A DNA stretch of 64,000 nucleotides from an uncultured Bacteroidota bacterium (GTDB taxonomy: Bacteria > Bacteroidota > Bacteroidia > Bacteroidales > UBA12077): positions 96,626 through 160,625 of the forward strand of contig CAJXLK010000001.1 in the NCBI GenBank assembly GCA_913055635.1, read 5' to 3'. Numbering within the stretch: position 1 is the first letter of the stretch; each line of letters begins with the position of its first letter. Below, piece after piece: positions 4,224-56,016 of this stretch. The notes beneath the pieces were generated by a model, which was given only the letters and a program-made list of their open reading frames with translations, ran no database searches and was not told the origin of the DNA. The position numbers were made by a program, and so were the translations under genes.

Positions 4224-4282
4224 CCCCCCTGGAATCCGGGGGTCTCTGAATAACCCCCTGGAATCCGGGGGTCTCTGAATAA
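4224..4282. repeat. 30 + 29-nt direct tandem unit cccccctggaatccgggggtctctgaataa (two units here, one in copy 2)
   Basis: Read directly. Each unit contains a ccccc/ggggg inverted repeat. Copy 2 has a single unit at 8253-8282. Confidence 0.9.
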
Positions 4283-4300
4283 CCTTCAAGATGGGGGTGG

Positions 4301-4339
4301 TCTTTAAAGAAACCGCCGGGCTGGTGTCCAACCCGGCGG
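4301..4339 (-). terminator. Intrinsic terminator of the large secreted-protein gene (copy 1)
   Basis: Perfect 8-bp GC stem ccgccggg (4313-4320) / cccggcgg (4332-4339) with an 11-nt loop. On the minus strand it is followed by tttctttaaag. It lies 30 nt past the stop codon. Confidence 0.7.
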
Positions 4340-4368
4340 AAGATGCAGGACAAGGTGTGATGTTCCGG

Positions 4369-7300
4369 TTACCGGCTGATGCTGTACTCCAGCCTGTCAA
4401 GGGGGTAGTATGTTTTCGGGTGGTCTCCGATGCGCTCTTTCTCGCTCTTGTGATGGAGTTTGATGATAGCCCTGTCATCCAGTGTCGGATATGCTGCATC
4501 TATGTTCATGAATGAGGTGTAACTTGATACATTACCTCTTCGTTCACTTCGTCCGTAGATTTCTTTAAGATTTCCTGCCCAGTCCTGTAAATTTACTTCT
4601 ATGTCTCCTCCATTAACAGCTGTTTCTTTATATTGCTTATTATTTTCATATATTGCCAGTGCTTCAGGAACTGTTTCATTACCACCGATATATACGTTCC
4701 ATCCGAGACTGTCGGGATGGTAATTATGCTCTGGATGATAATTGCTGAATTCTGCATCGATGTGTTCGTTTACGAGTTTGAATGGTCTGGATGGATCATC
4801 CATGGGCACGCTTTTTGGTATGCCATAGAACAGACTATCTCCGACTGCAATGATTGAATCCCTGAATGTTTGTTTCTCTGAAGCGTCCATTGATTCATAG
4901 TTGAGTCTGACTTTTCGCCCCATCGCTTCTTCAGTGTCTGTTCTATATGCAGAGGAACTTGGAGGACTTCGTATCATCTCATCGATTTTCTCGGGATCCG
5001 CTGTCACTGTCTCTCCTTTATCCGGATCGTTTTCTGTCGCTGGAATCGGCAGTTCCGTTGGCACGAGCATCCAGTTTATCGTCTCGATACTGTCTTCAGC
5101 CGGCTCGATGACCTCTGACTTGATCGTATATGTGTGACCTACATCTGACAGATACCCGCTTGCATTGTGATTGTGATAACCGACCTCCCAGAATCCTTCT
5201 GTATTGCAATCGATATCGCCGATCCTGAATTTTCCGTCTGCATCCGTCACGCTCTCTGCTAACAGCGTGCTATCGCTTGCTCTCTTGAACCTTACCTTGA
5301 CGCTATCGAGCCGCTTGTTGGCATCGTAGATATCTCTGATTGTTCCTTTTAGAGTGACATTCTGATCGTACTGTTGAACATAAGCGTCTCCTAGATCATC
5401 AAGTGATTTTGTTATTTTTATAGTATCTTTATATGGTTTGAACATTCCTGTTGAGGTGGTGTCTGTTGGGGTAATCGTTCTGACATACTGTGCGGTATCG
5501 GCTTCTCCCTGTGCATCTGTGGGGATTTTAATATTTGTGAACTCATAAAAATTATCATCATTCATTGTTATTGAATCTTTATGATTGACATTAACACCCT
5601 TTATTTTCACAAATGCATTTGAAATCCACCCATAAGGTTCTCGTCGTATAGTTCCTATTACACTCTCATTCTCTACATACTCTGGATACTCTGTGAGTCC
5701 CGGCATATCAATCTCATTCTCTCCCTCACTCACATTCATGGTAGTGTCCTTATCTGTATATCCTTCTCGGGAGAGTGAATAGACGAGGCTATCAAGCCGT
5801 TGCGTGGCCGGCCTCGTAACATCGAACTCGTAATCCGGATCGTTCTCCTGGAGCGCCTTTCCGTGAGCCAATGTGTCCTGGGAGTTGGCCTTATCGGTTA
5901 CGACATAATCGAGGCTATCGGTTGCCGTACTTCCGAACAGCGAATACGACACCGTATCTGGCTTCAACGCCGGCAAATCAAACGCATTCTCTCCCTCGCT
6001 CACATCCACAGCCGTATCTTGTTTTAGATAATTATCTCTGGACAAATTCACCAGCACACTATCGATCTGCTCTTCAGTTGCAAGCCTCTCAAAATCCACG
6101 CTGTAAGCAGGACTATTCTCCTGCAGGGCCTTTCCCTCTCCCAGTGTATCCTGTGGGTTGGCCTTATCAGTCACGACATAATCGAGGCTATCTGTTGCCG
6201 TACTTCCAAACAGCGAATACGACACCGTATCCGGCTTCAATGGCGGCAGATTGATCGCATTCACACCTGTCTGCACCTCTCGCACGAGTGTATCGAGATC
6301 CTGATAATCCTCTCTTAATAGCTCGAACCTAACGCTATCAAGCGCTCCGACGCGCTTGAAACCCATCTCATAACTGTTCTCACTCACATTCGCTGAATCC
6401 AGCCCCGCTCCATCGGCTGCATTGAAAAGTTTGATCTTTGAACCATTCGGCCCTGCACTTCCTGTAAACGAATAGACGAGACTGTCAAGCCGCACATCGA
6501 AGCTGTTCTGCCCGTATGAAAGTGCCACGGTCGTATCCTTATCCTGCCAGTTCTGATGGGCTACAGCCACATCCGCGCTGTCTGTGGAAACATCTGTCGT
6601 ATAGTTCACCTCAGTGCCGTTTAACGATTCTCCGGTGCTTCGTGGTGTGACTGCCACATCGCTTCCTTGTGGGGCTTCGACCTTGACCTCATAATGGAGG
6701 GTCACATCGGTGAGATCCTGTTTTAGCGTATCGGTGACAGTACCGTCCCAGTTTTTTTGCACGACATTGGGTGCTGATTGCGTAATCTGCACTGGCTGGC
6801 TCTCCTTCGTATTGGAGAACGTTGCCGAATACCGCCCCTCTATCTCATCAGTATCGGCGAGTATCGTATCTGCTTGACTATCCTTTATCGTCACAGCAGC
6901 ACCGTCCATCGCATCCCCTAAGACGGTGTGGTTGAACGTATCTTCTGGTGTGCTTTTTTCAGAGAGCCTGAACGTCACGTTTTGTCCGCCCCAGCTTCCA
7001 ACAAACGTGCTATCGAGCGTCTCATGTTCTGGTGCTTCCACGTGCAGGTTCAACTCCTTCTCCCTGCTGTCCAGATATGCAGAGTCGGTCCTGTAGGTTT
7101 TGTTTGCATCAACGGCTCCTGCAAACACTTCGTTGCCATCCACAGCAATATTCACGTTCGCATCAGCCGCGTTTCCTTCTACGGTATAGAAATGGATGAA
7201 TCCATCCGGGGCGATGGTTTCGGAGAGGTTGTTTGTGCCTTCACTGAGGTGGTATTCGCGGGTGAAGCGTGTGAAGGTGATGTTGCAGGAGCCGTCGGGT

Positions 7301-7959
7301 TGGAAAGAGAAGGTATAGTTGGGGTCCGGGCTGGTGTTATGCAGGCTGGCGGTGGCATCAGACGGGCCGGGCCGATGCCCTGTTTTGCCCCCGCCTGCCT
7401 GTGAGCCGCCGGGGTGGTGTATGATCCGGGCGTTTGAGCCCTGCCAGCGGAACAGGTAGATGCCCCCGTCCACCGAGCCAGGGTGAGGCTGCCATCGAAA
7501 GACGGTGGTGGTGCTGCCTCCGCCCCGGGGTTCCAACCGGGCCACGAGGCGCCCCGAGAGGCTGTGTATGGTGGCAGCCGGACGGTCTTTCTCGGGAGCG
7601 GCCCGGCCCCTTACCACGATGCGGTGCGAGGCGCCCGGGTTGGGGATGACCGTGACACCCGCACCCTCGCTTTCCGGCCCGTTAAGACCGGTTGCCACCG
7701 ACAACCCGCTGAAGCCGGCCTGCCCGTCGGGTCCGGTCAGCAGGGTGTCAACCGCCCCGTCTCCACCGTAAGGGGCGATCACTACCCGGGCCCGGCGAAC
7801 AGCCTCGCCGCTGTCGGTCTTCACCGTGAGGGTGCCCGAGGCCGCCTGGCCAAAAGCGGCAGGGGAGCCACACAATAGTACGATAAATATAGCCACACCT
7901 GTGATGCCGCCGCAGTTGATCCTGTGAAAAACCTTTGGGCGCGAAAAAGAGGTTGTCAT
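4369..7959 (-). CDS. Large secreted multi-domain repeat protein, copy 1 (1196 aa), function unknown
   Basis: Signal peptide MTTSF...LLCGSPAAFGQA. CarboxypepD_reg-like segment (GTLTVKTDSGEAV...TGPDGQAGF). Internal T9SS-CTD-like segment (VIPNPGASHRIVV...IHSLSGRLVARL...GGIYLFRWQG). Two 91-aa tandem repeats. A second CarboxypepD_reg-like segment (LKGTIRD...TDADGKFRI). The C-terminal ~350 aa has no motif I recognise. Confidence 0.85.
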   Translation of the reverse strand: MTTSFSRPKVFHRINCGGITGVAIFIVLLCGSPAAFGQAASGTLTVKTDSGEAVRRARVVIAPYGGDGAVDTLLTGPDGQAGFSGLSVATGLNGPESEGAGVTVIPNPGASHRIVVRGRAAPEKDRPAATIHSLSGRLVARLEPRGGGSTTTVFRWQPHPGSVDGGIYLFRWQGSNARIIHHPGGSQAGGGKTGHRPGPSDATASLHNTSPDPNYTFSFQPDGSCNITFTRFTREYHLSEGTNNLSETIAPDGFIHFYTVEGNAADANVNIAVDGNEVFAGAVDANKTYRTDSAYLDSREKELNLHVEAPEHETLDSTFVGSWGGQNVTFRLSEKSTPEDTFNHTVLGDAMDGAAVTIKDSQADTILADTDEIEGRYSATFSNTKESQPVQITQSAPNVVQKNWDGTVTDTLKQDLTDVTLHYEVKVEAPQGSDVAVTPRSTGESLNGTEVNYTTDVSTDSADVAVAHQNWQDKDTTVALSYGQNSFDVRLDSLVYSFTGSAGPNGSKIKLFNAADGAGLDSANVSENSYEMGFKRVGALDSVRFELLREDYQDLDTLVREVQTGVNAINLPPLKPDTVSYSLFGSTATDSLDYVVTDKANPQDTLGEGKALQENSPAYSVDFERLATEEQIDSVLVNLSRDNYLKQDTAVDVSEGENAFDLPALKPDTVSYSLFGSTATDSLDYVVTDKANSQDTLAHGKALQENDPDYEFDVTRPATQRLDSLVYSLSREGYTDKDTTMNVSEGENEIDMPGLTEYPEYVENESVIGTIRREPYGWISNAFVKIKGVNVNHKDSITMNDDNFYEFTNIKIPTDAQGEADTAQYVRTITPTDTTSTGMFKPYKDTIKITKSLDDLGDAYVQQYDQNVTLKGTIRDIYDANKRLDSVKVRFKRASDSTLLAESVTDADGKFRIGDIDCNTEGFWEVGYHNHNASGYLSDVGHTYTIKSEVIEPAEDSIETINWMLVPTELPIPATENDPDKGETVTADPEKIDEMIRSPPSSSAYRTDTEEAMGRKVRLNYESMDASEKQTFRDSIIAVGDSLFYGIPKSVPMDDPSRPFKLVNEHIDAEFSNYHPEHNYHPDSLGWNVYIGGNETVPEALAIYENNKQYKETAVNGGDIEVNLQDWAGNLKEIYGRSERRGNVSSYTSFMNIDAAYPTLDDRAIIKLHHKSEKERIGDHPKTYYPLDRLEYSISR
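5695..6240 (-). repeat. Two in-frame 273-bp (91-aa) tandem repeats inside the large gene
   Basis: LKPDTVSYSLFGSTATDSLDYVVTDKAN... occurs twice, with Leu codons at 6238-6240 and 5965-5967, exactly 273 nt apart. More degenerate units lie upstream. The same tract occurs at 9695-10240 in copy 2. Confidence 0.85.
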
Positions 7960-8300
7960 AACAACGCGTTTGTTTTGTTGGTATAACCAAAATAAGAAAA
8001 ATTGCGGGAAAAGCGAAAGAAGAAGGCAAAGGAAGAGGAAGGAGGGAATAGGGTTCTATTGTTTTATGGTTGAAGGGTTAAGGGGTCGTTGTTGCGGAAG
8101 TTGCGACCGCAGGCTGTCACGCGTCAAATTTGAAACATAAAACGTTGCACCTAAAACTCCAGGCTAAGCACCAAATTTTAAGCAAAATTTCAATCTCCAA
8201 ATCTCAAACCGGTGACAACAGAGGATATCGGGTTTGGAATTTTCCCAATCGTCCCCCCTGGAATCCGGGGGTCTCTGAATAACCGTCAAGATGGGGGTGG

Positions 8301-8339
8301 TCTTTAAAGAAACCGCCGGGCTGGTGTCCAACCCGGCGG
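8301..8339 (-). terminator. Intrinsic terminator of the large secreted-protein gene (copy 2)
   Basis: Sequence identical to 4301-4339. Confidence 0.7.
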
Positions 8340-8368
8340 AAGATGCAGGACAAGGTGTGATGTTCCGG

Positions 8369-11300
8369 TTACCGGCTGATGCTGTACTCCAGCCTGTCAA
8401 GGGGGTAGTATGTTTTCGGGTGGTCTCCGATGCGCTCTTTCTCGCTCTTGTGATGGAGTTTGATGATAGCCCTGTCATCCAGTGTCGGATATGCTGCATC
8501 TATGTTCATGAATGAGGTGTAACTTGATACATTACCTCTTCGTTCACTTCGTCCGTAGATTTCTTTAAGATTTCCTGCCCAGTCCTGTAAATTTACTTCT
8601 ATGTCTCCTCCATTAACAGCTGTTTCTTTATATTGCTTATTATTTTCATATATTGCCAGTGCTTCAGGAACTGTTTCATTACCACCGATATATACGTTCC
8701 ATCCGAGACTGTCGGGATGGTAATTATGCTCTGGATGATAATTGCTGAATTCTGCATCGATGTGTTCGTTTACGAGTTTGAATGGTCTGGATGGATCATC
8801 CATGGGCACGCTTTTTGGTATGCCATAGAACAGACTATCTCCGACTGCAATGATTGAATCCCTGAATGTTTGTTTCTCTGAAGCGTCCATTGATTCATAG
8901 TTGAGTCTGACTTTTCGCCCCATCGCTTCTTCAGTGTCTGTTCTATATGCAGAGGAACTTGGAGGACTTCGTATCATCTCATCGATTTTCTCGGGATCCG
9001 CTGTCACTGTCTCTCCTTTATCCGGATCGTTTTCTGTCGCTGGAATCGGCAGTTCCGTTGGCACGAGCATCCAGTTTATCGTCTCGATACTGTCTTCAGC
9101 CGGCTCGATGACCTCTGACTTGATCGTATATGTGTGACCTACATCTGACAGATACCCGCTTGCATTGTGATTGTGATAACCGACCTCCCAGAATCCTTCT
9201 GTATTGCAATCGATATCGCCGATCCTGAATTTTCCGTCTGCATCCGTCACGCTCTCTGCTAACAGCGTGCTATCGCTTGCTCTCTTGAACCTTACCTTGA
9301 CGCTATCGAGCCGCTTGTTGGCATCGTAGATATCTCTGATTGTTCCTTTTAGAGTGACATTCTGATCGTACTGTTGAACATAAGCGTCTCCTAGATCATC
9401 AAGTGATTTTGTTATTTTTATAGTATCTTTATATGGTTTGAACATTCCTGTTGAGGTGGTGTCTGTTGGGGTAATCGTTCTGACATACTGTGCGGTATCG
9501 GCTTCTCCCTGTGCATCTGTGGGGATTTTAATATTTGTGAACTCATAAAAATTATCATCATTCATTGTTATTGAATCTTTATGATTGACATTAACACCCT
9601 TTATTTTCACAAATGCATTTGAAATCCACCCATAAGGTTCTCGTCGTATAGTTCCTATTACACTCTCATTCTCTACATACTCTGGATACTCTGTGAGTCC
9701 CGGCATATCAATCTCATTCTCTCCCTCACTCACATTCATGGTAGTGTCCTTATCTGTATATCCTTCTCGGGAGAGTGAATAGACGAGGCTATCAAGCCGT
9801 TGCGTGGCCGGCCTCGTAACATCGAACTCGTAATCCGGATCGTTCTCCTGGAGCGCCTTTCCGTGAGCCAATGTGTCCTGGGAGTTGGCCTTATCGGTTA
9901 CGACATAATCGAGGCTATCGGTTGCCGTACTTCCGAACAGCGAATACGACACCGTATCTGGCTTCAACGCCGGCAAATCAAACGCATTCTCTCCCTCGCT
10001 CACATCCACAGCCGTATCTTGTTTTAGATAATTATCTCTGGACAAATTCACCAGCACACTATCGATCTGCTCTTCAGTTGCAAGCCTCTCAAAATCCACG
10101 CTGTAAGCAGGACTATTCTCCTGCAGGGCCTTTCCCTCTCCCAGTGTATCCTGTGGGTTGGCCTTATCAGTCACGACATAATCGAGGCTATCTGTTGCCG
10201 TACTTCCAAACAGCGAATACGACACCGTATCCGGCTTCAATGGCGGCAGATTGATCGCATTCACACCTGTCTGCACCTCTCGCACGAGTGTATCGAGATC
10301 CTGATAATCCTCTCTTAATAGCTCGAACCTAACGCTATCAAGCGCTCCGACGCGCTTGAAACCCATCTCATAACTGTTCTCACTCACATTCGCTGAATCC
10401 AGCCCCGCTCCATCGGCTGCATTGAAAAGTTTGATCTTTGAACCATTCGGCCCTGCACTTCCTGTAAACGAATAGACGAGACTGTCAAGCCGCACATCGA
10501 AGCTGTTCTGCCCGTATGAAAGTGCCACGGTCGTATCCTTATCCTGCCAGTTCTGATGGGCTACAGCCACATCCGCGCTGTCTGTGGAAACATCTGTCGT
10601 ATAGTTCACCTCAGTGCCGTTTAACGATTCTCCGGTGCTTCGTGGTGTGACTGCCACATCGCTTCCTTGTGGGGCTTCGACCTTGACCTCATAATGGAGG
10701 GTCACATCGGTGAGATCCTGTTTTAGCGTATCGGTGACAGTACCGTCCCAGTTTTTTTGCACGACATTGGGTGCTGATTGCGTAATCTGCACTGGCTGGC
10801 TCTCCTTCGTATTGGAGAACGTTGCCGAATACCGCCCCTCTATCTCATCAGTATCGGCGAGTATCGTATCTGCTTGACTATCCTTTATCGTCACAGCAGC
10901 ACCGTCCATCGCATCCCCTAAGACGGTGTGGTTGAACGTATCTTCTGGTGTGCTTTTTTCAGAGAGCCTGAACGTCACGTTTTGTCCGCCCCAGCTTCCA
11001 ACAAACGTGCTATCGAGCGTCTCATGTTCTGGTGCTTCCACGTGCAGGTTCAACTCCTTCTCCCTGCTGTCCAGATATGCAGAGTCGGTCCTGTAGGTTT
11101 TGTTTGCATCAACGGCTCCTGCAAACACTTCGTTGCCATCCACAGCAATATTCACGTTCGCATCAGCCGCGTTTCCTTCTACGGTATAGAAATGGATGAA
11201 TCCATCCGGGGCGATGGTTTCGGAGAGGTTGTTTGTGCCTTCACTGAGGTGGTATTCGCGGGTGAAGCGTGTGAAGGTGATGTTGCAGGAGCCGTCGGGT

Positions 11301-11959
11301 TGGAAAGAGAAGGTATAGTTGGGGTCCGGGCTGGTGTTATGCAGGCTGGCGGTGGCATCAGACGGGCCGGGCCGATGCCCTGTTTTGCCCCCGCCTGCCT
11401 GTGAGCCGCCGGGGTGGTGTATGATCCGGGCGTTTGAGCCCTGCCAGCGGAACAGGTAGATGCCCCCGTCCACCGAGCCAGGGTGAGGCTGCCATCGAAA
11501 GACGGTGGTGGTGCTGCCTCCGCCCCGGGGTTCCAACCGGGCCACGAGGCGCCCCGAGAGGCTGTGTATGGTGGCAGCCGGACGGTCTTTCTCGGGAGCG
11601 GCCCGGCCCCTTACCACGATGCGGTGCGAGGCGCCCGGGTTGGGGATGACCGTGACACCCGCACCCTCGCTTTCCGGCCCGTTAAGACCGGTTGCCACCG
11701 ACAACCCGCTGAAGCCGGCCTGCCCGTCGGGTCCGGTCAGCAGGGTGTCAACCGCCCCGTCTCCACCGTAAGGGGCGATCACTACCCGGGCCCGGCGAAC
11801 AGCCTCGCCGCTGTCGGTCTTCACCGTGAGGGTGCCCGAGGCCGCCTGGCCAAAAGCGGCAGGGGAGCCACACAATAGTACGATAAATATAGCCACACCT
11901 GTGATGCCGCCGCAGTTGATCCTGTGAAAAACCTTTGGGCGCGAAAAAGAGGTTGTCAT
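8369..11959 (-). CDS. Large secreted multi-domain repeat protein, copy 2 (1196 aa, identical to copy 1)
   Basis: Same protein as 4369-7959. The start is set at the same MTTSFSRPKVF Met. The longer 8369-12493 ORF is read-through of upstream non-coding sequence. Confidence 0.8.
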   Translation of the reverse strand: MTTSFSRPKVFHRINCGGITGVAIFIVLLCGSPAAFGQAASGTLTVKTDSGEAVRRARVVIAPYGGDGAVDTLLTGPDGQAGFSGLSVATGLNGPESEGAGVTVIPNPGASHRIVVRGRAAPEKDRPAATIHSLSGRLVARLEPRGGGSTTTVFRWQPHPGSVDGGIYLFRWQGSNARIIHHPGGSQAGGGKTGHRPGPSDATASLHNTSPDPNYTFSFQPDGSCNITFTRFTREYHLSEGTNNLSETIAPDGFIHFYTVEGNAADANVNIAVDGNEVFAGAVDANKTYRTDSAYLDSREKELNLHVEAPEHETLDSTFVGSWGGQNVTFRLSEKSTPEDTFNHTVLGDAMDGAAVTIKDSQADTILADTDEIEGRYSATFSNTKESQPVQITQSAPNVVQKNWDGTVTDTLKQDLTDVTLHYEVKVEAPQGSDVAVTPRSTGESLNGTEVNYTTDVSTDSADVAVAHQNWQDKDTTVALSYGQNSFDVRLDSLVYSFTGSAGPNGSKIKLFNAADGAGLDSANVSENSYEMGFKRVGALDSVRFELLREDYQDLDTLVREVQTGVNAINLPPLKPDTVSYSLFGSTATDSLDYVVTDKANPQDTLGEGKALQENSPAYSVDFERLATEEQIDSVLVNLSRDNYLKQDTAVDVSEGENAFDLPALKPDTVSYSLFGSTATDSLDYVVTDKANSQDTLAHGKALQENDPDYEFDVTRPATQRLDSLVYSLSREGYTDKDTTMNVSEGENEIDMPGLTEYPEYVENESVIGTIRREPYGWISNAFVKIKGVNVNHKDSITMNDDNFYEFTNIKIPTDAQGEADTAQYVRTITPTDTTSTGMFKPYKDTIKITKSLDDLGDAYVQQYDQNVTLKGTIRDIYDANKRLDSVKVRFKRASDSTLLAESVTDADGKFRIGDIDCNTEGFWEVGYHNHNASGYLSDVGHTYTIKSEVIEPAEDSIETINWMLVPTELPIPATENDPDKGETVTADPEKIDEMIRSPPSSSAYRTDTEEAMGRKVRLNYESMDASEKQTFRDSIIAVGDSLFYGIPKSVPMDDPSRPFKLVNEHIDAEFSNYHPEHNYHPDSLGWNVYIGGNETVPEALAIYENNKQYKETAVNGGDIEVNLQDWAGNLKEIYGRSERRGNVSSYTSFMNIDAAYPTLDDRAIIKLHHKSEKERIGDHPKTYYPLDRLEYSISR

Positions 11960-12268
11960 AACAACGCGTTTGTTTTGTTGGTATAACCAAAATAAGAAAA
12001 ATTGCGGGAAAAGCGAATTATCTTTTCCCGGCGCAACTTTTCGTTGCCTCTCAAGTTTTTCAGGATTTGGCATTAATTTTCCATAGATGCGGTGTCTGTC
12101 ATATGCATCATTCTCTTTATTGGGGCATTTATTGAGTGGTGGATCTTTTTTTCTGGGCTTAATAATCGCAGTGCGAGATGATGTTTTTTTGCAGATTGAT
12201 ATATGCGAACAATGTTGATTTTTTTGACTTCCTGGTGGATAATCGTTAGCTTTGAATATAAATCCGAA

Positions 12269-12510: not shown

Positions 12511-12744
12511 TCAGTCCATAAATTCAGTTTGTTTCCAGGGCAGGCTGTCGGGTTGGGCTGGTTCCTGCAGGGTATCGGAAGGGATTTTGTCTTGCCGGTT
12601 TTCTGCAGCAGCCGGATCATTTTTTGAACGCCTGTATTGCCGGAGATTGTACAATATTTCAGCCATTGCCAGCATTACCGCTGTGAGCAGGATGAACTGC
12701 AAAAGGCGTTTTCTGAACATTTTACTGGCTTGGTGTTTTTCCAT
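12511..12744 (-). CDS. Small membrane-anchored protein (hypothetical)
   Basis: N-terminal KMFRKRLLQFILLTAVMLAMAEILY helix. Overlaps the rdhC-like 3' end by 46-70 nt, so it is doubtful. Confidence 0.25.
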   Translation of the reverse strand: MEKHQASKMFRKRLLQFILLTAVMLAMAEILYNLRQYRRSKNDPAAAENRQDKIPSDTLQEPAQPDSLPWKQTEFMD

Positions 12745-13892
12745 GTCCTAATCATTTTATACCGGAACAATTTTATGAAACTTGCCACGGGTTTAATCGG
12801 GCAGAGAAAATTGCACCAGGGCTTTCGAATAAAAAGGGAAACGATGGTGATGATTCCCAACAGCAGGAACATGATCCGGGAGCCGGTCAAATGAAAAGCC
12901 GCCCCGAATACTTCATAATCAGAGATGCCCGGGTTTCTGGTCCACAGGGCGATAAGGACTGCACCCCAGGCCAGGGACCGCTGAATCCATGTCCATAAGC
13001 GGCGGTTATAGAGGGGAGCCGTTTTAGCCCTGCCTAGATTGCCCAATGCATCCTGAAATCCTTTGAACGGGCAAATAGACGAGCAGTAAGGGTTCCTTCC
13101 GGTGATCAACAAGATAATAAGGGTAGCGAAAATCAGTATATAGGTAAACAACTCGTGTTGCCATTGCGGCCAGTGGCCTGCTAACATGCCGTTGATTTGA
13201 GTCAGGGTAAGGGGGCGGTTGTAGACAAATCCCAAAAATATCAGGCCTCCATAGAGGCATATCCGGTGCAGTTTTTTCTTATGGGCCAGGCGGGGCAGCC
13301 AACTCAGAAGGGTAAGGGCAAACAACAACAGCAAAATGGATTCCTGAATGCCGAACTTTACCCTGGAAGTAGGGGAGGGAGCCGTTTTATCGGGAAAAAA
13401 TTCAGAGGTTATCCGGCGGGCAGCCTGCTCACCTGCCCTGGCGATGGCCCGGCTGGTTTGGGTGGCCCCGGTCACCCCGTCGGTTTGTGCCAACCGTGAG
13501 ATGTTCCGCTCACAGGCTTTTCCCCGGAAAGCTTCCAGGTAATCGGACTGATAGATTTTGGAAAGATAGGAGGGGGTTTCAGAGGCCGACAACACCTGAA
13601 TTTTTTGGATCCTGCCTTCAGGGGCGAGTTCAACGGCTACTTTGAGGCCACCGGCATAACCCTGGGCTTTGCCGGTGGCCAGGTAGAAAGCCTCTTTTTT
13701 GCCTTTGGGGAAAACTTTCCACAGGCCTTTTCCGTGCGAAGCCAACCGGTAAAGGCTGTCGGGATAGCGGGTGGCGATGTGGCGGTTTTGATGGATCTGT
13801 CTGCGCTGTTTGCCGCCCCACCATGCAGCAACAATGGTCAACAACGCAAAAAGGGCCAGGGCCCAATCCATATTTTGCCTTTTGATCTTCAC
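12675..13892 (-). CDS. RdhC/PceC-like membrane flavoprotein (NosR/NirI family: FMN-binding domain + polytopic membrane domain with two CX3CP motifs)
   Basis: FMN_bind signature DGVTGATQTSRAI. About 6 hydrophobic helices. PYCSSICPF and PWCNFLCPI motifs. The start overlaps the rdhB-like stop (ATGA). Confidence 0.75.
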   Translation of the reverse strand: MKIKRQNMDWALALFALLTIVAAWWGGKQRRQIHQNRHIATRYPDSLYRLASHGKGLWKVFPKGKKEAFYLATGKAQGYAGGLKVAVELAPEGRIQKIQVLSASETPSYLSKIYQSDYLEAFRGKACERNISRLAQTDGVTGATQTSRAIARAGEQAARRITSEFFPDKTAPSPTSRVKFGIQESILLLLFALTLLSWLPRLAHKKKLHRICLYGGLIFLGFVYNRPLTLTQINGMLAGHWPQWQHELFTYILIFATLIILLITGRNPYCSSICPFKGFQDALGNLGRAKTAPLYNRRLWTWIQRSLAWGAVLIALWTRNPGISDYEVFGAAFHLTGSRIMFLLLGIITIVSLFIRKPWCNFLCPIKPVASFIKLFRYKMIRTWKNTKPVKCSENAFCSSSCSQR

Positions 13893-14200
13893 ACCCGCTT
13901 TTTTTTACTTTTCATGGTGATAAGCCTCCATAGCCCAACGCCAAGGATGATGTCAATCAACAGGAATAAACCGAGAAAATAAAGTCCGGCCTGTGTTTCT
14001 CCTTCCCCGATCAGGGTCATTCCCCCGGCCAGGGACAACGATAAGAGGATGAACCAGGCCGCCGAGAGGAGCCATTTCCACCAGTTCATCTGCAGATTGA
14101 GGTCTTGTGCCCAATATCGTGCGCTGTAGATCATGATCAGGTAAAGCATGCCCATGATGATCCAAAAAACGGGTTTGAGAAACAGGTCGATGATAAACAT
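13889..14200 (-). CDS. RdhB-like small membrane anchor protein (103 aa, 3 predicted helices)
   Basis: Size, three hydrophobic segments, a GEGETQ acidic loop, and its position directly downstream of the rdhA-like gene. Confidence 0.6.
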   Translation of the reverse strand: MFIIDLFLKPVFWIIMGMLYLIMIYSARYWAQDLNLQMNWWKWLLSAAWFILLSLSLAGGMTLIGEGETQAGLYFLGLFLLIDIILGVGLWRLITMKSKKKRV

Positions 14201-14341
14201 GATTGAATGTAGTTAATAATGAATCTTCTACAATTTTTAATGGCCCTGGTTTATAACCTTAATTTTCATTCCGTAGGGTCCAAAACAATGATTTGCTCAT
14301 CACTATGCGGCTTCTTTATAATTCATGATTATGGTTATCCC

Positions 14342-15826
14342 TTAGTCAAGATTGAACCATTCCTCGGTTTTCAGCCACTGGGGTGGTTTTTGGTAAACTG
14401 CGTTGGTACCGTTTGGAGGAGGGAGGTACTGAGCTCCGCCCGGGTATGAGAAGAAGCTTTTCTGCATGGTAAGCATGGCGGAAGAGAACGTCCCGGTGGG
14501 GTCGTAGGCATCCACATCTTTGGCCAGGCGGTGGACCCAGTTGTTTTTGCGGGAATAAGGGCAAACAGCTAGGCACACGCGGCATCCCCGGGGATGTTGG
14601 GTTGCCACCGTATTCCATATGGTAAAACATTTGTCCTGGTTGATGGCCCAGCGGCGGTATCCGCGGATTACATCCGGGGGTTTTTCGGCGGAACTGATGG
14701 CCCCCGAGGGGCATTGATCGGCACATATCTTACATTTACGGCAAAATTCGGCCACTCCGAAGTCAATGGGGTGGTCCTCTTCGAGGGGCATATTGGTGGT
14801 TACGGCAGCCAGCCGGGTGTTGGCTCCCAGCTCAGGGGTGATCAGGATGCCGTGTCTGCCTTGTTCGCCCAGGCCGGCGTCGATGGCCAGAGGGGGCATG
14901 GCGATGTCGTAATCGGTGGGGGGCACATGAGGCCGGGCCGCATAGCCGAGGTGTTTGAGAAAAACTTCCAGCTTGCCGGCGATGAAGTTAAGCATGGAAT
15001 AGGCATCATAGGAAGTACCATAAACGGGATTGGCATAAAGGCTATCCCATTCGTGGGGTATGGCTACCACAACGGCATGTTTCCAATGTGGCGGCTTGTT
15101 GAATTGGGTCTTGCCCACGCCCCTGAGATAACCCTGATAAACCCACTGCTCGCGCACGGGCGCGATACCCACCAGGGTTGCCCCAAAGGTATGGGCGATT
15201 TTTTTGATCAACCGGGAACCATGACCAGGCGATTTCAGCGAATAAGCTTCGGTGGTGATGCCTTTAAAGTCCGACTCTTCCGGGGGGCCTTCCGGTTCAG
15301 ACGGGAAAGCACCTTTTCCGTGTAGCGGGCTCTCATGAGCGGCCGACCAGGCCGAGGCCAGCAAATAACGGGTCTTGTATTTTTTCCAGTTTTTCTTTTG
15401 TTGTTGACCCCGGCGAAAAGCCTTCTTGAATTCTTGCAGGCTCCCGGGGTGGCTTTGATAATAATCTCTCAGGGGCCCGGGCAGGTCACTGACCCCTTGT
15501 TTGAGCGTCCATTGCGGGGATGATCCGTCGCGGGGAAACATCAGCCGGTAAAGCTCGCCATTGCGGTTGAAAATGTTTTCCAGATAAGTGATCCGGCGCA
15601 CCGGCCCAACCTTTTGATAGGTCGGACGATGCACCCGGAAAGCCGCCCGGTTGAAATACTGGTTGCCTCCATAGGCATCCCGGCCCCAGCCCGTATGGGT
15701 GGCTTTGTTCCTGCCCGAGAGGTAGCCGGCCCCGGCAATGCCCCCGAGCGAAAGGGCGGCTCCTGCCAGGCCGCTGTATTTGATGAAATCACGCCGGTTG
15801 AACTTTTTGCCTGAGCGATCTGCCAT
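14342..15826 (-). CDS. rdhA: Reductive dehalogenase catalytic subunit homologue (RdhA family)
   Basis: Twin-arginine signal KFNRRDFIKYSGLAGAALSLGG. C-terminal Fe-S motifs CRKCKICADQCP and C(X)nCRVCLAVCPY. The 494-aa length is typical of RdhA. Confidence 0.8.
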   Translation of the reverse strand: MADRSGKKFNRRDFIKYSGLAGAALSLGGIAGAGYLSGRNKATHTGWGRDAYGGNQYFNRAAFRVHRPTYQKVGPVRRITYLENIFNRNGELYRLMFPRDGSSPQWTLKQGVSDLPGPLRDYYQSHPGSLQEFKKAFRRGQQQKKNWKKYKTRYLLASAWSAAHESPLHGKGAFPSEPEGPPEESDFKGITTEAYSLKSPGHGSRLIKKIAHTFGATLVGIAPVREQWVYQGYLRGVGKTQFNKPPHWKHAVVVAIPHEWDSLYANPVYGTSYDAYSMLNFIAGKLEVFLKHLGYAARPHVPPTDYDIAMPPLAIDAGLGEQGRHGILITPELGANTRLAAVTTNMPLEEDHPIDFGVAEFCRKCKICADQCPSGAISSAEKPPDVIRGYRRWAINQDKCFTIWNTVATQHPRGCRVCLAVCPYSRKNNWVHRLAKDVDAYDPTGTFSSAMLTMQKSFFSYPGGAQYLPPPNGTNAVYQKPPQWLKTEEWFNLD

Positions 15827-15968
15827 GGTGTGTTTTTTTGTTGGGGTAAAGGTAATAAATAGTTACAAAAGTAACTAATTTGTTTTGATTTTTCCCGAAC
15901 CCAACCCCCATCCAGTAACCTATACAACAAGGCTATGCATGAGACTGCACAACCCTATATCCATAGAG

Positions 15969-15984: not shown

Positions 15985-16038
15985 TAAGGTTTATTATAAG
16001 TATGGATTCAGGTTCAATGCCACAGAGATTTACATACT

Positions 16039-16126
16039 TTCAATGAGTCATTGTCCAAATTTCAATGAGTTATTCTCCAAATCTCAATGAGTCATTGTCC
16101 AAATTTCAATGAGTCATTGTCCAAAT
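16039..16126. repeat. 4 x 22-bp tandem array ttcaatgagtcattgtccaaat with palindromic core ATGAGTCAT; candidate operator array
   Basis: Units at 16039, 16061, 16083 and 16105. Units 1, 3 and 4 are nearly identical and unit 2 has 3-4 substitutions. The array lies between the rdhA-like gene (minus) and the MarR gene (plus). Confidence 0.85.
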
Positions 16127-16435: not shown

Positions 16436-16906
16436 ATGAAGTATTCCTTTGAAGGCTCGCTGGGGCGGATTTCCCATCAGGTATCGCGGGATCTGGGCCG
16501 GCACCTGGAACGGAAGTTCCGCCAGGCCGGTTATTCGATCAACAATTATGAATGGGCTGTATTGTCGTATCTTTTCACCCATCAAAAGAGTTGCCAGAAA
16601 TCCATTGCTGCGTTTTTGGGGACCGATAAAGTCATGGCCAAGCGGATCATCGACGGGCTGGAGAAAAGCGGTTACGTAAGCCGCCAGGAGGATACCACCG
16701 ACAAACGTTACAAGCAGGTTCAAATGACCCCTCGCGGGAATGCCCTTTTTAAGGAGTTGGAACCTTTTGCCGGTGAAGTTTTGGAGACTGCTTTCCGCGG
16801 TATTCCGCAATCTTCTATCAGCCAAACTTTTGATACCCTTCATCGGGTGTTGGAAAACCTGGAGGAAGCTTCACCCGGAACCGATGGTTTCAATGAATTG
16901 AAGTAA
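16436..16906 (+). CDS. MarR-family transcriptional regulator
   Basis: 156-aa winged-helix pattern: EWAVLSYLF...QKSIAAFLGTDKVMAKRIIDGLEKSGYVSRQEDTTDKRYKQVQMTPRG. Confidence 0.85.
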   Translation: MKYSFEGSLGRISHQVSRDLGRHLERKFRQAGYSINNYEWAVLSYLFTHQKSCQKSIAAFLGTDKVMAKRIIDGLEKSGYVSRQEDTTDKRYKQVQMTPRGNALFKELEPFAGEVLETAFRGIPQSSISQTFDTLHRVLENLEEASPGTDGFNELK

Positions 16907-17035: not shown

Positions 17036-18780
17036 ATGGAAAATTTTGTCGTTTCAGCCAGGAAGTACAGGCCCTCAACCTTTGATACCGTTGTGGGGCA
17101 ATCCTCGATCACCCGGACCCTGAAGAATGCCATCACCAATGACCAGATCGCCCAGGCCTATCTGTTTTGCGGTCCGCGGGGAGTAGGTAAGACGACGGTT
17201 GCACGGATATTTGCCAAAACGATCAATTGTTCAAATCTGAATGAAAACCTGGAGCCCTGTAATGCCTGTGATTCCTGTGTCGCCTTCAATCAACACCGTT
17301 CCACCAATATACATGAGCTGGATGCGGCTTCCAACAATTCGGTGGAAAACATCCGGTCCCTGACCGAACAGGTTCGTATTCCTCCGCAGGTTGGCAAATA
17401 CAGCATTTACATCATCGATGAGGTGCATATGCTCTCGCCCGCAGCCTTCAATGCCTTTTTGAAGACCCTGGAAGAGCCCCCTGCTCATGCCATCTTCATT
17501 CTGGCTACCACAGAAAAGCATAAGATTCTGCCCACCATCCTCTCGCGGTGTCAGATATTTGATTTCAACCGGATCAAAGTAGAAGAGATGGTACAATATC
17601 TGGAACAGATCAGCCGGGAGGAAAACCTGGATTATGAGAAAGATGCCCTGAATGTGATTGCCCAGAAGGCCGATGGGGCCCTTCGCGATGCCTTGTCGAT
17701 TTATGACCAGGTGGTCAGCTTCTCGGGGGAAAAAATCACCTATCAGAACGTGATAGAGAATTTGAATGTGCTGGACTATGATTACTATTTTCGTTTGACC
17801 GATGCTTTTCTGGAAGGCGATCATGGCCAGGCCCTGTTGATTTTCAATGAAATCCTTGAGAAAGGCTTTGATGCCCATCAGTTCATCAATTCATTGAGCC
17901 AGCATTTCAGAGACCTGTTGGTCAGCAAGGATGAGCAGACCCTTGATTTGCTGGAGGTTGGAGCAGGCATCCGGGAGCGTTACAAGGAGCAGTCGGGCAA
18001 AGTTTCTGCCAAATATCTGATCAGGGCCTTAAATATAGCCAACCAGTATGATGTAACCTACCGTTCCAGCATGAACCAGCGCCTTCACATAGAGCTGGCG
18101 ATGGTGGACCTGTGCAACATGGAGGCGGAAAAAAAAAAGCAGGTGAATCAAGCGGGGAAGGTGCCACAGAGGTAAAGGAGAAACAGCCGGCGCAAGGCGG
18201 GGCAAAACCGAGTGAGCGGGTCAAGTCGAGCGTAAGGGCCAAGGCTTCCAGTTCAGAGGCATCGCAAGCAGCTACCCCTTCAAAAAAGCCGGACACCTTT
18301 TCGATCAACCAGGCCCTGAAAAAGGGACGCCAGGAGAAACCCGGGGAGGCTGAAGGCGATCAGCAGCCGGAGGAGGAGGAGGAGCCTTCCGCCGATACCG
18401 GGAAAAACCGCCACCACCATTTCACCCAGGAAGAACTCGAAAAGGCCCTGAAGACCATTGCCGGGGAATACAAGGATAAGCCTCGAATATCCAATATGCT
18501 TGCCTCACGCAAACCGCAAAAGCAGCCGGATGATCTGATTCATATTCACCTGGAGAATCAGCTCCAGCAGCAACAGATCAACCGGATTTACAATACCCTT
18601 TTATACCGCCTGAAGGAGGAACTTCAAAACGACGCCATTACCCTTCAAACTGAAATTGCCCGCGAACAGCAGGCGGGCGATAAAAAACTCTACACCGCCG
18701 AGGACAAATATTTGTACATGGAGAAGAAAAATCAGTACCTCAAACAGCTCAAACAGGATTTTGATCTGGATTTTGACTGA
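17036..18780 (+). CDS. dnaX: DNA polymerase III subunit gamma/tau. Frame 0 stops at 18175 (379 aa); the full-length tau-like product needs a -1 shift at 18133-18139
   Basis: AAA+ clamp-loader motifs GPRGVGKTT, YIIDEVHMLS and SRCQ. The -1 frame ORF (18112-18780) continues with a K/E/Q-rich linker and a conserved-looking C-terminal domain. Confidence 0.9.
18133..18139 (+). promoter_or_regulatory. A AAA AAG slippery heptamer within an A10 run (candidate -1 frameshift or transcriptional slippage site)
   Basis: Frame-0 codons are GAA AAA AAA AAG. GGAGG at 18121-18125 lies 7 nt upstream. The downstream ORF is in the -1 frame. Confidence 0.6.
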
Positions 18781-42182: not shown

Positions 42183-42689
42183 ATGGAACAAAAAAACGAA
42201 AAGACCAATTCTTATTTAACTTTTAAACTGGGCGAGGAAGAATTTGGGGTCCACGTCAGTCAGGTCATCAACATTTTGGAGATGACCCGGATTATTGAGG
42301 TGCCCCGCACCCCGTCTTATATGAAAGGGGTGATCAACCTCAGGGGGACGGCCCTGCCGGTGATCGATACCCGTCTGCGTTTGGGCCTGGAAGAGGCTAA
42401 ATATAGCCATAACACCTGTATTGTTGTACTGGATCTTGAGCATCAGGGGGAGACCTACCATGTGGGTGCCATTGTGGATGAAGTATTGTCTGTGGTTGAG
42501 ATAGAAGCCGGACAGGTTGAACCCCCGCCGGCCATTGGCGATGAAAAAGGCCCGGACTTCATCTTTGGTATGACCCGCATTGACGATCGATTTACGATGT
42601 TGTTGGATATGCAGGGGATGATGGATGAGCGGGAGATGGAAAAGATTTCGCAAGCCGCCGGCGAGCGGCAAAGCAAAGTAGCCTCATAA
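42183..42689 (+). CDS. cheW: Chemotaxis coupling protein CheW
   Basis: [18 protein letters not shown]...[31 protein letters not shown] strong AGGAGG (42173-42178) precedes the ATG. Confidence 0.9.
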
Positions 42690-42721
42690 AGCATTTACGT
42701 TACACACAAAAAAAGAGCAAA

Positions 42722-44875
42722 ATGAACTGGAAAGATTTAAAACTGGGGGCAAAACTGGCGATTGGTTTTGGCCTGCTTATTCTGATTTCAATGATACTTG
42801 GCGGACTGGCCGTGTATAACATGTCCAATGTCTCTAAGAATTCGAATTATCTGGCCGATGAATACATCCCGGAAGTGGATCTGGCCAGTACCCTGGAGCG
42901 CAATGCAAGGCAAACGATGTACAACATGCGGGGATACAGCCTTTCGGAAAATGAGGGGTATCTGCGTGAAGGCCGCAATTATTTGGGGAAGGTGGAGAAT
43001 AACATCGCTGAGGCCCGTCGCCTGGCCCGTGAGACTTCCCAGCTGGACAAGCTCAATTCGGAGATCGACCATGTTGAGAACAACCTCAACGAGTACAAGG
43101 GCCTGGTCGATCAGACGGTTACCCTGAACAACGGGCTGCAACAGGAGCGCAATCAGATGGATGCTTCGGCCGACCAGTTTATGGAGGCCTGCTACAATTA
43201 CCTGGAGAGCCAGAACCGGCAACTTCGTGAGGAGATTGCCAATAATGCTTCAGCCCAGGCTTTTACCGAGCGGCATAAAAAGATCACCTGGATCAATGAC
43301 ATCATTGATGCGGGCAATGCCGTGAGGGTGAGCAATTTCAAACATCAGGCCAAAAGAAATCCGGATGCTTTTCGCAAGGCCCTCAATGATTTTGACATAT
43401 CCGCCACCATGGATAAGCTTAGGAACGTGACTTACCTGGAGGCCGACAAGGAAGCGCTGGATCAGATACGTCAGTCGGCCGATGGGTATACCCAGGCCAT
43501 GAACACCTTCATCAATGATTGGGAAAAGCGCAATCAGTTGAACCAGGAGCGCGACCAGGTGGCCACCCGGGTGCTTGAGTCTACCCAGGCCGTTGCCAAT
43601 GCCGGGATCAAGACCACTTCCAACATTGCCGACCAGGCCGTGAAAATGCTCTCGCAATCGAGCAACATCATGATAGCCGGGCTTATTCTGGCACTGATCC
43701 TTGGGGTGATTCTGGCCATCACCATTACCCGCACCATTACCAGACCATTGAATCAGGGTGTAGCTTTTGCTCAGGAAGTGGCCAATGGCAACCTGGAAGC
43801 TCAGGTGGATGTTCACCGCAATGATGAAATCGGCACCCTGGCCGATGCCCTGCGCAATATGGCCTCCCGCCTGCAAGGCGTTGTCCGCGAAATTCGGGCA
43901 GGCGCTGAAAACATTGCTTCAGCCAGCGAGCAGATGAGCTCCAATTCCCAGGAAATGTCTCAGGGCTCCAGCGAACAGGCTTCTTCCGCTGAAGAGGTCT
44001 CTTCCTCGATGGAAGAGATGAAATCGAACATCCAGCAGAATACGGATAATGCCCAGCAAACCGAAAAGATTTCTAAGAATGCAGCCGAAAGCATCAAGAA
44101 AGGCAATGAGGCGGCTCAGAATTCAGTTCAGTCGATGAAGGAAATTGCTGAAAAGATTTCCATCATTAATGATATTGCTTATCAGACCAATATCCTTGCC
44201 TTGAATGCAGCTGTCGAAGCCGCCCGGGCCGGTGAGCACGGCAAAGGATTTGCTGTGGTGGCCGCTGAGGTGCGTAAACTGGCTGAACGCAGCTCCGAAG
44301 CAGCCAACGAAATTGATGAGAAGTCTAAAGCCGGCGTTCAAATTTCTGAAGAGGCCGGCCAGCAACTTAGTGAAATCGTGCCTGAAGTCGAGAAAACCTC
44401 TCAGTTGGTTCAGGAAATTACCGCAGCCAGCAATGAGATGAACAGTGGCGCCGATCAGGTTAACAATGCCATTCAGCAGTTGAATCAGGTCACCCAGCAA
44501 AACGCCTCCTCATCCGAAGAACTGGCATCCAACGCAGAAGAGCTCTCCAGCCAGGCCGATCAGCTTAAACAGGTTATCAGCTTCTTTAAACTCAATGACA
44601 CCAATGGCCAGGGACAAGGCGCCTCTAAGGGTCATAAGCATCTTGATTTTGGCCACATGAGCCAGCAATCCAATCAGAACCAACAAAGCGGCCCCCAAAA
44701 CGGACAGGGCCAGCAAACGAGTCAGCAGCATCAACCCCGCCAGCAATCAGCCCGGGCCTCCAATCAAAACGCAGGCAAGACCTATTCATCGGGTCAACAA
44801 CAAAACAACGGCAACGGGGTTGACCTGAAAATGTACAACCACGACCAGCAGGACAAAGATTTTGAGAATTACTGA
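42722..44875 (+). CDS. Methyl-accepting chemotaxis protein (2 TM, periplasmic helical sensor, HAMP, MA domain, long Q/N/G-rich tail)
   Basis: [21 protein letters not shown]. Signalling hairpin [40 protein letters not shown]. The tail ends ...[10 protein letters not shown]. Confidence 0.92.
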
Positions 44876-53532: not shown

Positions 53533-53589
53533 GTGGCCCAATGCTTTTAGATGTCCTTGTTTTAAAATGAATATTGATCTCACCTCTCA

Positions 53590-55891: not shown

Positions 55892-56016
55892 TTATTTATA
55901 TTTGCCTATTTTCGTATGGTTGTAAACAATATTTTTAGATTTTTTGTTTGAAACACTGCCTGTTTTTTTTAAACAAGTAGGATGAACGGATATAAGTTAC
56001 CAAAAAATCCGCTTGC

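Follow-up and report, generated by a model that had tools for sequence, protein, structure and literature searches.

A probable MarR-controlled operon for an exported, membrane-anchored reductive dehalogenase in an uncultured Bacteroidales bacterium

Gene order and sequence support

The DNA analyzed here (the "window", meaning the full 64,000-nt stretch) comes from contig CAJXLK010000001.1 of an uncultured member of the Bacteroidales, and probably carries a MarR-controlled rdhA-rdhB-rdhC-rdhX operon for a periplasm-facing, membrane-anchored, corrinoid-dependent reductive dehalogenase. The four operon genes lie on the minus strand. The first, rdhA (14342..15826; 494 amino acids, aa), encodes the catalytic subunit, a reductive dehalogenase of the predicted corrinoid/2x[4Fe-4S] type that falls into a distinct subfamily. 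It is followed by rdhB (13889..14200; 103 aa), encoding a three-helix membrane anchor, rdhC (12675..13892; 405 aa from a GTG start, or alternatively 398 aa from an ATG at 13871), encoding a PceC-like polytopic flavoprotein, and rdhX (a provisional name; 12511..12720; 69 aa), encoding a single-pass membrane protein and overlapping the 3' end of rdhC. A MarR-family regulator (PF01047, 3.2e-10) is encoded divergently by marR (16436..16906, plus strand; 156 aa). A sequence-only reading of this DNA had described rdhA, rdhB and rdhC, and its three minus-strand open reading frames (ORFs) are present with the coordinates and lengths it gave; its unit was drawn too narrowly, as marR, an operator-like palindrome and the fourth small gene fall outside it. 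Related public loci and contigs used for comparison are designated L001 to L017.

The operon is also found on an ENA contig (L011, 26 kb) and a JGI contig (L012, 5.5 kb), with 99.7-99.96% DNA identity; because two independent public assemblies hold the same operon, an assembly artifact is excluded. Only one DNA run, a marine metagenome, contains the stretch, and the habitat is recorded as saline/marine metagenome. The gap between rdhA and rdhB is 141 bp in the window (14201-14341), compared to 11-21 bp in L005, L008, L009, L013, L015 and L017; L007 has 91 bp. The extra length is accounted for by neither a repeat nor an ORF. We found no convincing intrinsic terminator 3' of rdhX, and neither a cobalamin riboswitch nor any other Rfam element near the operon. 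Among window ORFs of at least 150 aa there are no corrinoid, PceT-like, ApbE or twin-arginine translocation (Tat) genes, in agreement with the earlier remark that no corrinoid salvage or maturation (pceT-like) gene is visible nearby.

RdhA family membership

RdhA is a reductive dehalogenase catalytic subunit by family membership. The sequence-only reading had proposed the dehalogenase models TIGR02486 and PF13486 (the latter is taken up below) and the exclusion of epoxyqueuosine reductase (QueG) as checks. RdhA scores 181.4 bits against TIGR02486 'reductive dehalogenase' (curated cutoff 160.35), with a match that covers profile positions 114-311 of 314 only, corresponding to the C-terminal two thirds of the protein. 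In a phmmer search of the PDB, RdhA matched PceA of Desulfitobacterium hafniense (DhPceA; 8Q4H) at 2.4e-35, NpRdhA (4RAS) at 2.6e-33 and PceA of Sulfurospirillum multivorans (SmPceA; 4UQU) at 2.3e-31. An AlphaFold2 model built with 31 homologues (mean predicted local distance difference test score, pLDDT, 70; predicted template modeling score, pTM, 0.70) gave PceA structures as the top Foldseek matches, aligned over 428-475 columns; PceA and NpRdhA were recovered at ~1e-13 to 1e-11 with a template modeling (TM) score of ~0.5.

The possibility that rdhA instead encodes QueG, or a generic ferredoxin-domain protein misread as a dehalogenase, has annotation on its side: JGI labels several RdhA relatives 'epoxyqueuosine reductase', and Pfam recognizes only ferredoxin-type domains in RdhA itself, as it does (Fer4-type) in the precomputed lists for more than 100 RdhA homologues. 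A QueG identity is refuted by the scores. RdhA reaches only 51.1 bits against the QueG model TIGR00276 (cutoff 200), over residues 312-432 only; QueG structures were matched by phmmer at 1e-9 to 5e-8 (best 1.2e-9), the PceA and NpRdhA matches being 24-26 orders of magnitude better; and Foldseek returned QueG at ~1e-4 (2e-4, TM ~0.3, vs. 2e-13 and TM 0.5 for PceA). Since TIGR02486, phmmer and Foldseek all favor PceA and NpRdhA, RdhA does not cluster with QueG. Nor does QueG fit a protein that has a Tat signal and is partnered by RdhB and RdhC, as described below, and we regard the chance of such a misreading as practically nil.

A distinct RdhA subfamily

A HMMER search of 1.84 billion representative proteins yielded 3690 matches to RdhA. 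About 15 clusters (at 50% identity) match RdhA over most or all of its length, with 36-51% identity, and the remaining matches cover the core only (residues ~195-440); the N-terminal ~190 residues and the C-terminal tail are the subfamily-specific parts of the protein. Trees were constructed from 187 core columns, in which DhPceA, SmPceA and NpRdhA were represented by the fragments printed by the PDB search. The clade containing RdhA received a Shimodaira-Hasegawa-like (SH-like) support of 0.95 (FastTree, 124 sequences) and an ultrafast bootstrap (UFBoot) value of 99 (IQ-TREE LG+G4, 65 sequences), and it excludes the Tat-bearing group with both PceAs, a 'hybrid' group with N-terminal helices, and NpRdhA. 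The placement of NpRdhA itself is unstable; it is sister to the RdhA clade in the FastTree phylogeny (support 0.22) and lies elsewhere in the IQ-TREE phylogeny. The core phylogenies place RdhA in a well-supported subfamily distinct from the PceA-type, NpRdhA-type and N-terminal-helix 'hybrid' enzymes.

Most members of the subfamily carry Tat signals. A Desulfobacterota branch (P0089, P0100, P0117, P0121) has hydrophobic N-terminal extensions, yet rdhB still adjoins the gene. Vibrio sp. SS-MA-C1-2 is the only cultured strain among the members with a named source, the others being metagenome-assembled genomes (MAGs), one of them from the Acidobacteriota. The named homologues of RdhA at 59-66% identity are Bacteroidales or Bacteroidota MAG proteins, as are L001 and L002 at 75%.

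Export signal, cofactor motifs and catalytic residues

The RdhA Tat signal peptide (15728..15826, minus strand; residues 1 to ~33) contains the twin-arginine motif N10-R-R-D-F-I-K16 (15779-15799) and a Gly/Ala-rich h-region ending in A-G-A. The twin-arginine leader (RRDFIK) noted in the sequence-only reading is recovered above cutoff by both PF10518 (24.4 bits, cutoff 22.7) and TIGR01409 (22.6 bits, cutoff 16.7). No segment of RdhA, h-region included, reaches the transmembrane threshold in hydropathy analysis. The two C-terminal Fe-S motifs that had also been noted are present at 14558..14743 (minus strand) as C362xxCxxCxxxCP and C400...C415xxCxxxCP; all eight cysteines (C362/365/368/372 and C400/415/418/422) are invariant among the 31 homologues, and Fer4_7 and Fer4_16 match at residues 362-424.

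Tyr276 (codon 14999..15001, minus strand), the proposed catalytic proton donor, aligns by phmmer to DhPceA Y337 (chain Y289) and is invariant in the 31 homologues. Its partner, Arg338 (codon 14813..14815, minus strand), is kept by at least 90% of these homologues. In the alignments Arg338 pairs with R396 of DhPceA, with the equivalent Arg of SmPceA and with K488 of NpRdhA, and the K488Q variant chain has Q in the same column. Catalytic roles have been assigned to DhPceA Y337/SmPceA Y246 and to the Arg that corresponds to SmPceA R305 (PMC10624902). Corrinoid binding by RdhA is suggested by the fold-level similarity of the model to PceA and NpRdhA.

Directly after the second Fe-S motif lies a predicted counterpart of the menaquinone-pocket helix (14531..14563, minus strand), C422-P-Y-S-R426-K-N-N-W430-V-H432. 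In DhPceA the menaquinone head-group pocket is formed by K489, W493 and H495 (PMC10624902). The pocket motif CP..[KR]...W.H occurs in 120/120 close homologues and in 26/33 subfamily representatives, but in only 1/27 enzymes of the N-terminal-helix type. The K-W-H pattern is also present in SmPceA; NpRdhA, a cytoplasmic, NADPH-dependent, catabolic enzyme, has Gly at the His position.

The RdhB anchor

The rdhA-rdhB pair is kept in every related locus examined. RdhB had been described as a 103-aa, three-helix, RdhB-like anchor, and three helices are given both by hydropathy (~11-27, 48-64, 75-91, followed by a basic C-terminus) and by the AlphaFold2 model (mean pLDDT 81; helices 2-33, 40-65, 69-95). 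A three-helix protein whose C-terminus is basic would expose the loop between its second and third helices to the outside. In RdhB this loop carries a GExE motif, G65-E66-G-E68 (13997-14008, minus strand), in which E66 and E68 are invariant in 7 orthologues; the counterpart of this ExE loop in PceB is E61/E63 (PMC10624902). An identical RdhB on contig L011 is annotated as PF27193 VcrB (precomputed). When the RdhB model was compared by Foldseek with the whole PDB, the top match was PceB (8q4h_C), with probability 0.99, TM 0.66/0.74 and a root mean square deviation of 2.7 Å. The K/R-W-H pocket motif of RdhA and the GExE loop of RdhB are the two features that speak for a predicted coupling of the enzyme to a quinone pool with energy conservation.

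The RdhC flavoprotein

The start of rdhC can be placed in two ways. A GTG at 13892 overlaps the rdhB stop codon as a 4-nt GTGA, whereas gene callers on identical public contigs chose an ATG seven codons downstream, giving a 398-aa RdhC. The N-termini of relatives favor the longer (405-aa) form, and the rdhB/rdhC start overlap reported earlier would thus hold if the GTG at 13892 is used; it is lost with the callers' ATG at 13871.

RdhC contains an FMN_bind (flavin mononucleotide, FMN) domain (8.6e-12) and two Fer4_5 stretches. The motif DGVTGATQTS is at residues 138-147, with T141-G-A-T144-Q-T at 13455-13472, and the two CX3CP motifs are C270SSICP (13068-13085) and C360NFLCP (12798-12815). G142, A143, T144, the four motif cysteines and the motif prolines are invariant in relatives. 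The FMN domain matches RnfG structures (3e-9), but NosR, NapH and RnfG models give partial matches far under their cutoffs (NosR, 34 bits vs. 1000; NapH, 27 vs. 213), and, unlike in NosR and NapH, no ferredoxin (4Fe-4S) motif was found at the RdhC C-terminus. Simple hydropathy indicates five clear segments (11-27, 186-202, 208-224, 248-264, 339-355) and a weaker one at ~300-318, and the charge distribution fits an N-in/FMN-out topology. The RdhC family is defined by the FMN motif [S/T]G[A/S]TX[S/T], two CX3CP motifs, six helices and no C-terminal 4Fe-4S motif (PMC5928378). The RdhC/PceC-type protein of the sequence-only reading is borne out in its motifs, GVTGATQTS and two CX3CP.

The window RdhC ends in a Cys-rich CX6CX3C tail, KCSENAFCSSSCSQR (12675-12720), which is not a ferredoxin motif and is present in none of four orthologues. 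This tail overlaps the rdhX start and probably arose through a shift of the stop codon, not as a metal site.

RdhX

In 9/9 loci carrying rdhX (these include the window, L001, L002, L005, L013, L015, L016 and L017), the gene comes directly after rdhC, and the two often overlap in an ATGA; L007 and L009 lack rdhX. In RdhX, a basic N-terminus is followed by one membrane helix and a variable linker, and the C-terminus carries the conserved motif D-S-L-x-W-x-x-T-E-F-M. The family comprises 12 clusters in the protein collection, of which the three with a named source are hypothetical proteins from Bacteroidales or Bacteroidetes MAGs, and RdhX has no Pfam match.

The W-x-x-T-E-F-M motif (12514-12540), the sole conserved motif in the soluble part of RdhX, resembles the C-terminal W484-L-K-T-E-E-W-F of RdhA (14345-14377; conserved as W-L-x-T-E-E-W-F), which belongs to a tail modeled at pLDDT >80. 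Co-variation of the RdhA tail motif with rdhX was considered and is unsupported, as the motif is conserved with or without rdhX. The resemblance may be due to chance.

Regulatory region

A divergent MarR gene upstream of rdhA accompanies the rdhA-B-C order in seven related loci, being called in L005, L007, L013, L015, L016 and L017 and represented in L002 by an ORF with a MarR Pfam match at the same divergent position; L009 has the A-B-C order without MarR. The 18-bp palindrome TAGTTACTTTTGTAACTA (15860..15877, minus strand), which occurs once in the window, precedes the rdhA start by about 50 bp. Eleven loci each have a single TAGTTnCnnTTGnAACTA copy, located 39-148 bp upstream of rdhA. They are the window, L011/L012 (further copies of the same locus), the seven loci with MarR, and L001 and L003. 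In L001 and L003 the MarR position is at or beyond the contig end. The palindrome is absent from 4/4 loci without a visible MarR gene (L004, L008, L009, L010). It overlaps a TAnnTTTG element, which we take to be a Bacteroidetes-type promoter. The distribution and position of the palindrome make it a candidate MarR operator, and MarR is listed among three characterized regulator types of rdh clusters (PMC12090745).

The 609-bp rdhA-marR spacer also contains four head-to-tail 22-bp units, TTTGGACAATGACTCATTGAAA, with the palindromic core AATGACTCATT (16038..16126, minus strand; Tandem Repeats Finder score 157). Spacers in related loci are ~100-270 bp and lack the array, and the unit was not found elsewhere in the window, the rdhA-rdhB spacer included. 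L012 (962-1570) has four units, like the window, and the spacer of L011 (1436-2000) is shorter by 44 bp, or two units. This difference reflects either real copy-number polymorphism in the regulatory region or assembly collapse. The array may have a part in regulating the operon, or none.

Inheritance within the Bacteroidales

The operon is located between dnaE and dnaX/ilvE-like/mnmA genes in the window, L005 and L015. Compared to L005 (GCA_964585385.1), RdhA is 71% identical and MnmA 66%. For the window MnmA, the nearest named sequences are from Bacteroidales MAGs (72-75%) and the nearest from a cultured organism is that of Perlabentimonas gracilis (63%). Because RdhA and MnmA have diverged to a similar degree and flanking synteny is kept, vertical inheritance under selection within the lineage appears to fit better than recent transfer.

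The MarR-rdhABCX module of L017 (GCA_032260385.1, Bacteroidales) is immediately preceded, at 1-540, by a second rdhB in the opposite orientation and a neighboring 465-aa gene with no recorded Pfam domain, so that more than one rdh gene pair may be present in some members of the lineage.

Relation to known systems

The best reference is PceA2B2/pceABCT of Desulfitobacterium hafniense TCE1 and Dehalobacter restrictus (PDB 8Q4H; PMC10624902, PMC5928378). The window resembles it in the Tat-exported RdhA, corrinoid fold, two Fe-S motifs, catalytic Tyr/Arg pair, K/R-W-H helix after the second cluster and three-helix B subunit with an ExE loop, as well as in the A-B-C order with an FMN/CX3CP PceC-type protein encoded next. 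Sequence similarity is low: RdhA is 23% identical to PceA (8q4h_A) in the Foldseek alignment, and phmmer covers residues 195-239 and 250-436 only. The window further differs in its separate RdhA subfamily, a B subunit without detectable sequence similarity, the lack of a PceT chaperone gene, the extra rdhX and the Gram-negative host. Its regulator is a MarR protein, whereas pceABCT is under CRP/FNR control or a constitutive transposon promoter.

Within the phylum, 'hybrid' rdhA genes with three N-terminal transmembrane helices are known from Marinilabiliales and other Bacteroidetes (PMC6797604). They share the superfamily core with the window RdhA but lack a Tat motif and a separate rdhB, form a separate tree group and contain the pocket motif at the low frequency given above. 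Bacteroidales and Bacteroidota MAG clusters from dechlorinating Aarhus Bay cultures (PMC12090745) are like the window in that their reductive dehalogenases (RDases) are classed as respiratory and some have rdhB. The likeness to those bins is by description, and the accessible parts of PMC12090745 and PMC5928378 describe neither an rdhX gene nor the palindrome. A cold-seep 'novel clade' (PMC12219181), placed between cytosolic and prototypical respiratory enzymes and featuring rdhB as a partner and either a Tat signal or a helix at the N-terminus, resembles the window subfamily in its Tat signals, N-terminal extensions, rdhB and position outside the PceA group; this likeness, by description only, is a lead. 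The rdhABC clusters of marine Desulfoluna (PMC7031245) have, again by description, the same A-B-C order and an RdhC with FMN and CX3CP motifs, and one of them is flanked by MarR. Bromophenol/bromobenzene respiration has been demonstrated in this non-specialist (PMC7031245), which belongs to another phylum and makes its own corrinoid.

Proposed mechanism and alternative explanations

Because a Tat signal, a separate RdhB and a PceC-like RdhC occur together, the enzyme is assigned to the exported, membrane-anchored type, as the sequence-only reading had done. Its label 'respiratory' holds for the exported architecture; respiration itself is suggested by architecture and conserved residues only.

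By homology to the PceA2B2 complex of D. hafniense (PMC10624902), RdhA would be loaded in the cytoplasm with a corrinoid and two [4Fe-4S] clusters, exported via Tat and docked on RdhB. Menaquinol would be oxidized at the RdhA/RdhB interface (R426, W430, H432; E66, E68), with protons released outward via the glutamates, and electrons would pass from menaquinol through the two clusters to cobalt. The organohalide would then be reduced and halide released, with Tyr276 as the proton donor, and organohalides would serve the cell as a terminal electron acceptor or electron sink. RdhC may be flavinylated at Thr144, in its periplasmic domain, by an ApbE-type transferase.

The roles of the remaining components are more weakly inferred. 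RdhC could be an accessory electron-transfer or maturation factor, not a stoichiometric subunit (PceC is ~50-fold less abundant than PceA in model organisms; PMC10624902), RdhX could be a small membrane partner, and MarR could repress the operon via the palindrome over the promoter and be released by a ligand. A more detailed picture is possible but tentative, and we think it more apt to fail in some part than to hold throughout: a family-level Bacteroidales lineage would have vertically inherited marR and rdhA-B-C-X, with an RdhA from a subfamily in which no characterized member was found, possibly the 'novel clade' of PMC12219181, and would use it for inducible, menaquinone-dependent organohalide respiration, RdhX being a small subunit that docks via its periplasmic C-terminal W-x-x-T-E-F.

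Several results weigh against an operon for a corrinoid-dependent, quinol-coupled dehalogenase. The N-terminal dehalogenase domain PF13486, proposed as a check alongside TIGR02486, was not detected in RdhA at E <= 0.01, and the DhPceA corrinoid-contact residues H395, K399, H461 and S479 are not conserved in the pairwise alignment with RdhA. No characterized enzyme was found among the source-named members of the subfamily. For RdhB, the Foldseek E-value against PceB is only 0.29, and a sequence profile searched against the PDB missed PceB and returned only chance-level matches to renin receptor helices. Even in model organisms, PceC-type proteins have no settled function (PMC10624902). Menaquinone, corrinoid-supply, Tat, ApbE and electron-donor genes are all missing inside the window, and none of the RNA runs contains rdhA.

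Since no characterized subfamily member was found, the chemistry of RdhA could differ from that of known dehalogenases. The enzyme could belong to the RdhA/QueG superfamily and act on a bond other than carbon-halogen, e.g., by removing a different leaving group from an aromatic or vinylic carbon, which would make 'dehalogenase' a misnomer for this subfamily. The separation from the three solved dehalogenases at UFBoot 99, the subfamily-specific N-terminal ~190 residues and C-terminal tail, the missing PF13486 match and the 'epoxyqueuosine reductase' labels that some sources give to relatives could all be read in this way. Nevertheless, RdhA keeps the Tyr/Arg pair with which C-halogen bonds are reduced, it passes the TIGR02486 cutoff, and export with RdhB anchoring is known only for dehalogenases; the QueG substrate is a cytoplasmic tRNA, out of reach for an exported enzyme. 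We consider a non-halogen substrate very unlikely.

A closer competitor, which we still judge unlikely, is that the same complex serves detoxification or acts as an electron sink that aids fermentation, not energy-conserving respiration. The ligands of MarR regulators are typically phenolic or toxic compounds. Toxic organohalides, such as bromophenols from algae and mats, occur in saline habitats, and a phenolic-sensing MarR would fit a stress or detoxification regulon. The operon has no dedicated electron-donor module, corrinoid pathway or chaperone nearby, the window holds a single rdhA compared to dozens in specialist respirers, and 'facilitated fermentation' has been discussed for Bacteroidetes RDases (PMC6797604). 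Set against this, the quinol-pocket motif and the GExE loop, with its proposed outward proton release, are conserved, and a quinol-oxidizing, periplasm-facing reductase is respiratory whenever a coupling dehydrogenase reduces the quinone pool. The two explanations differ in physiology, not mechanism.

Genomic neighborhood

Between rdhX and dnaE the window contains a 3764-bp direct repeat (4254-8017 and 8254-12017; a single mismatch, 4000-bp offset, 236-bp spacer), each copy of which holds a gene of ~1196 aa without a Pfam match; relatives have only one to five other genes between rdhX and dnaE. The 3.76-kb repeat is an insertion at this place, a large surface-protein gene recently duplicated in tandem.

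On the other side, dnaX is present in two overlapping frames (17036-18175, 379 aa; 18112-18780, 222 aa). It is likewise split in L015 (378 aa plus a 240-aa DUF8439 ORF) and is a single 573-aa gene in L005; because the split is common to two genomes, programmed frameshifting is suggested over sequencing error.

Farther away are a cheW and a methyl-accepting chemotaxis protein gene (42183-44875) and a carotenoid-type cluster (51999-57519) with phytoene synthase, two phytoene-desaturase-like flavoproteins and lycopene cyclase, adjoining ispH. Both the chemotaxis genes and the carotenoid cluster are somewhat unexpected for a presumed anaerobic member of the Bacteroidales.

Significance for the Bacteroidota

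RDase genes have been reported from the phylum before. RdhC sequences were listed for Bacteroidetes in 2018 (PMC5928378). In 2025, RDase genes were counted in 112 Bacteroidota reference genomes, and Bacteroidales RDase transcripts were found in tetrachloroethene (PCE)-dechlorinating cultures (PMC12090745). According to the latter study, no corresponding Bacteroidota isolate has been physiologically characterized for organohalide respiration, and the 'uncharacterised function' that the sequence-only reading ascribed to such genes in Bacteroidota holds in this sense, for genes already surveyed. As such genes in the phylum are already published, the gain is incremental; what may be new here is the distinct subfamily placement, the conserved operator-like palindrome and the rdhX gene.

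Marine and saline sediments are rich in natural organohalides, and what is known of the organisms that reduce them there comes largely by inference from gene surveys. Members of the Bacteroidales abound in such habitats, and organohalide respiration has been demonstrated for no member of the phylum. The locus is a compact test object that combines a single rdhA and the gene for its anchor with a PceC-like flavoprotein, a possible additional subunit and a regulator whose 18-bp operator is predicted, and the ligand of the MarR protein could point to the substrate of the enzyme.

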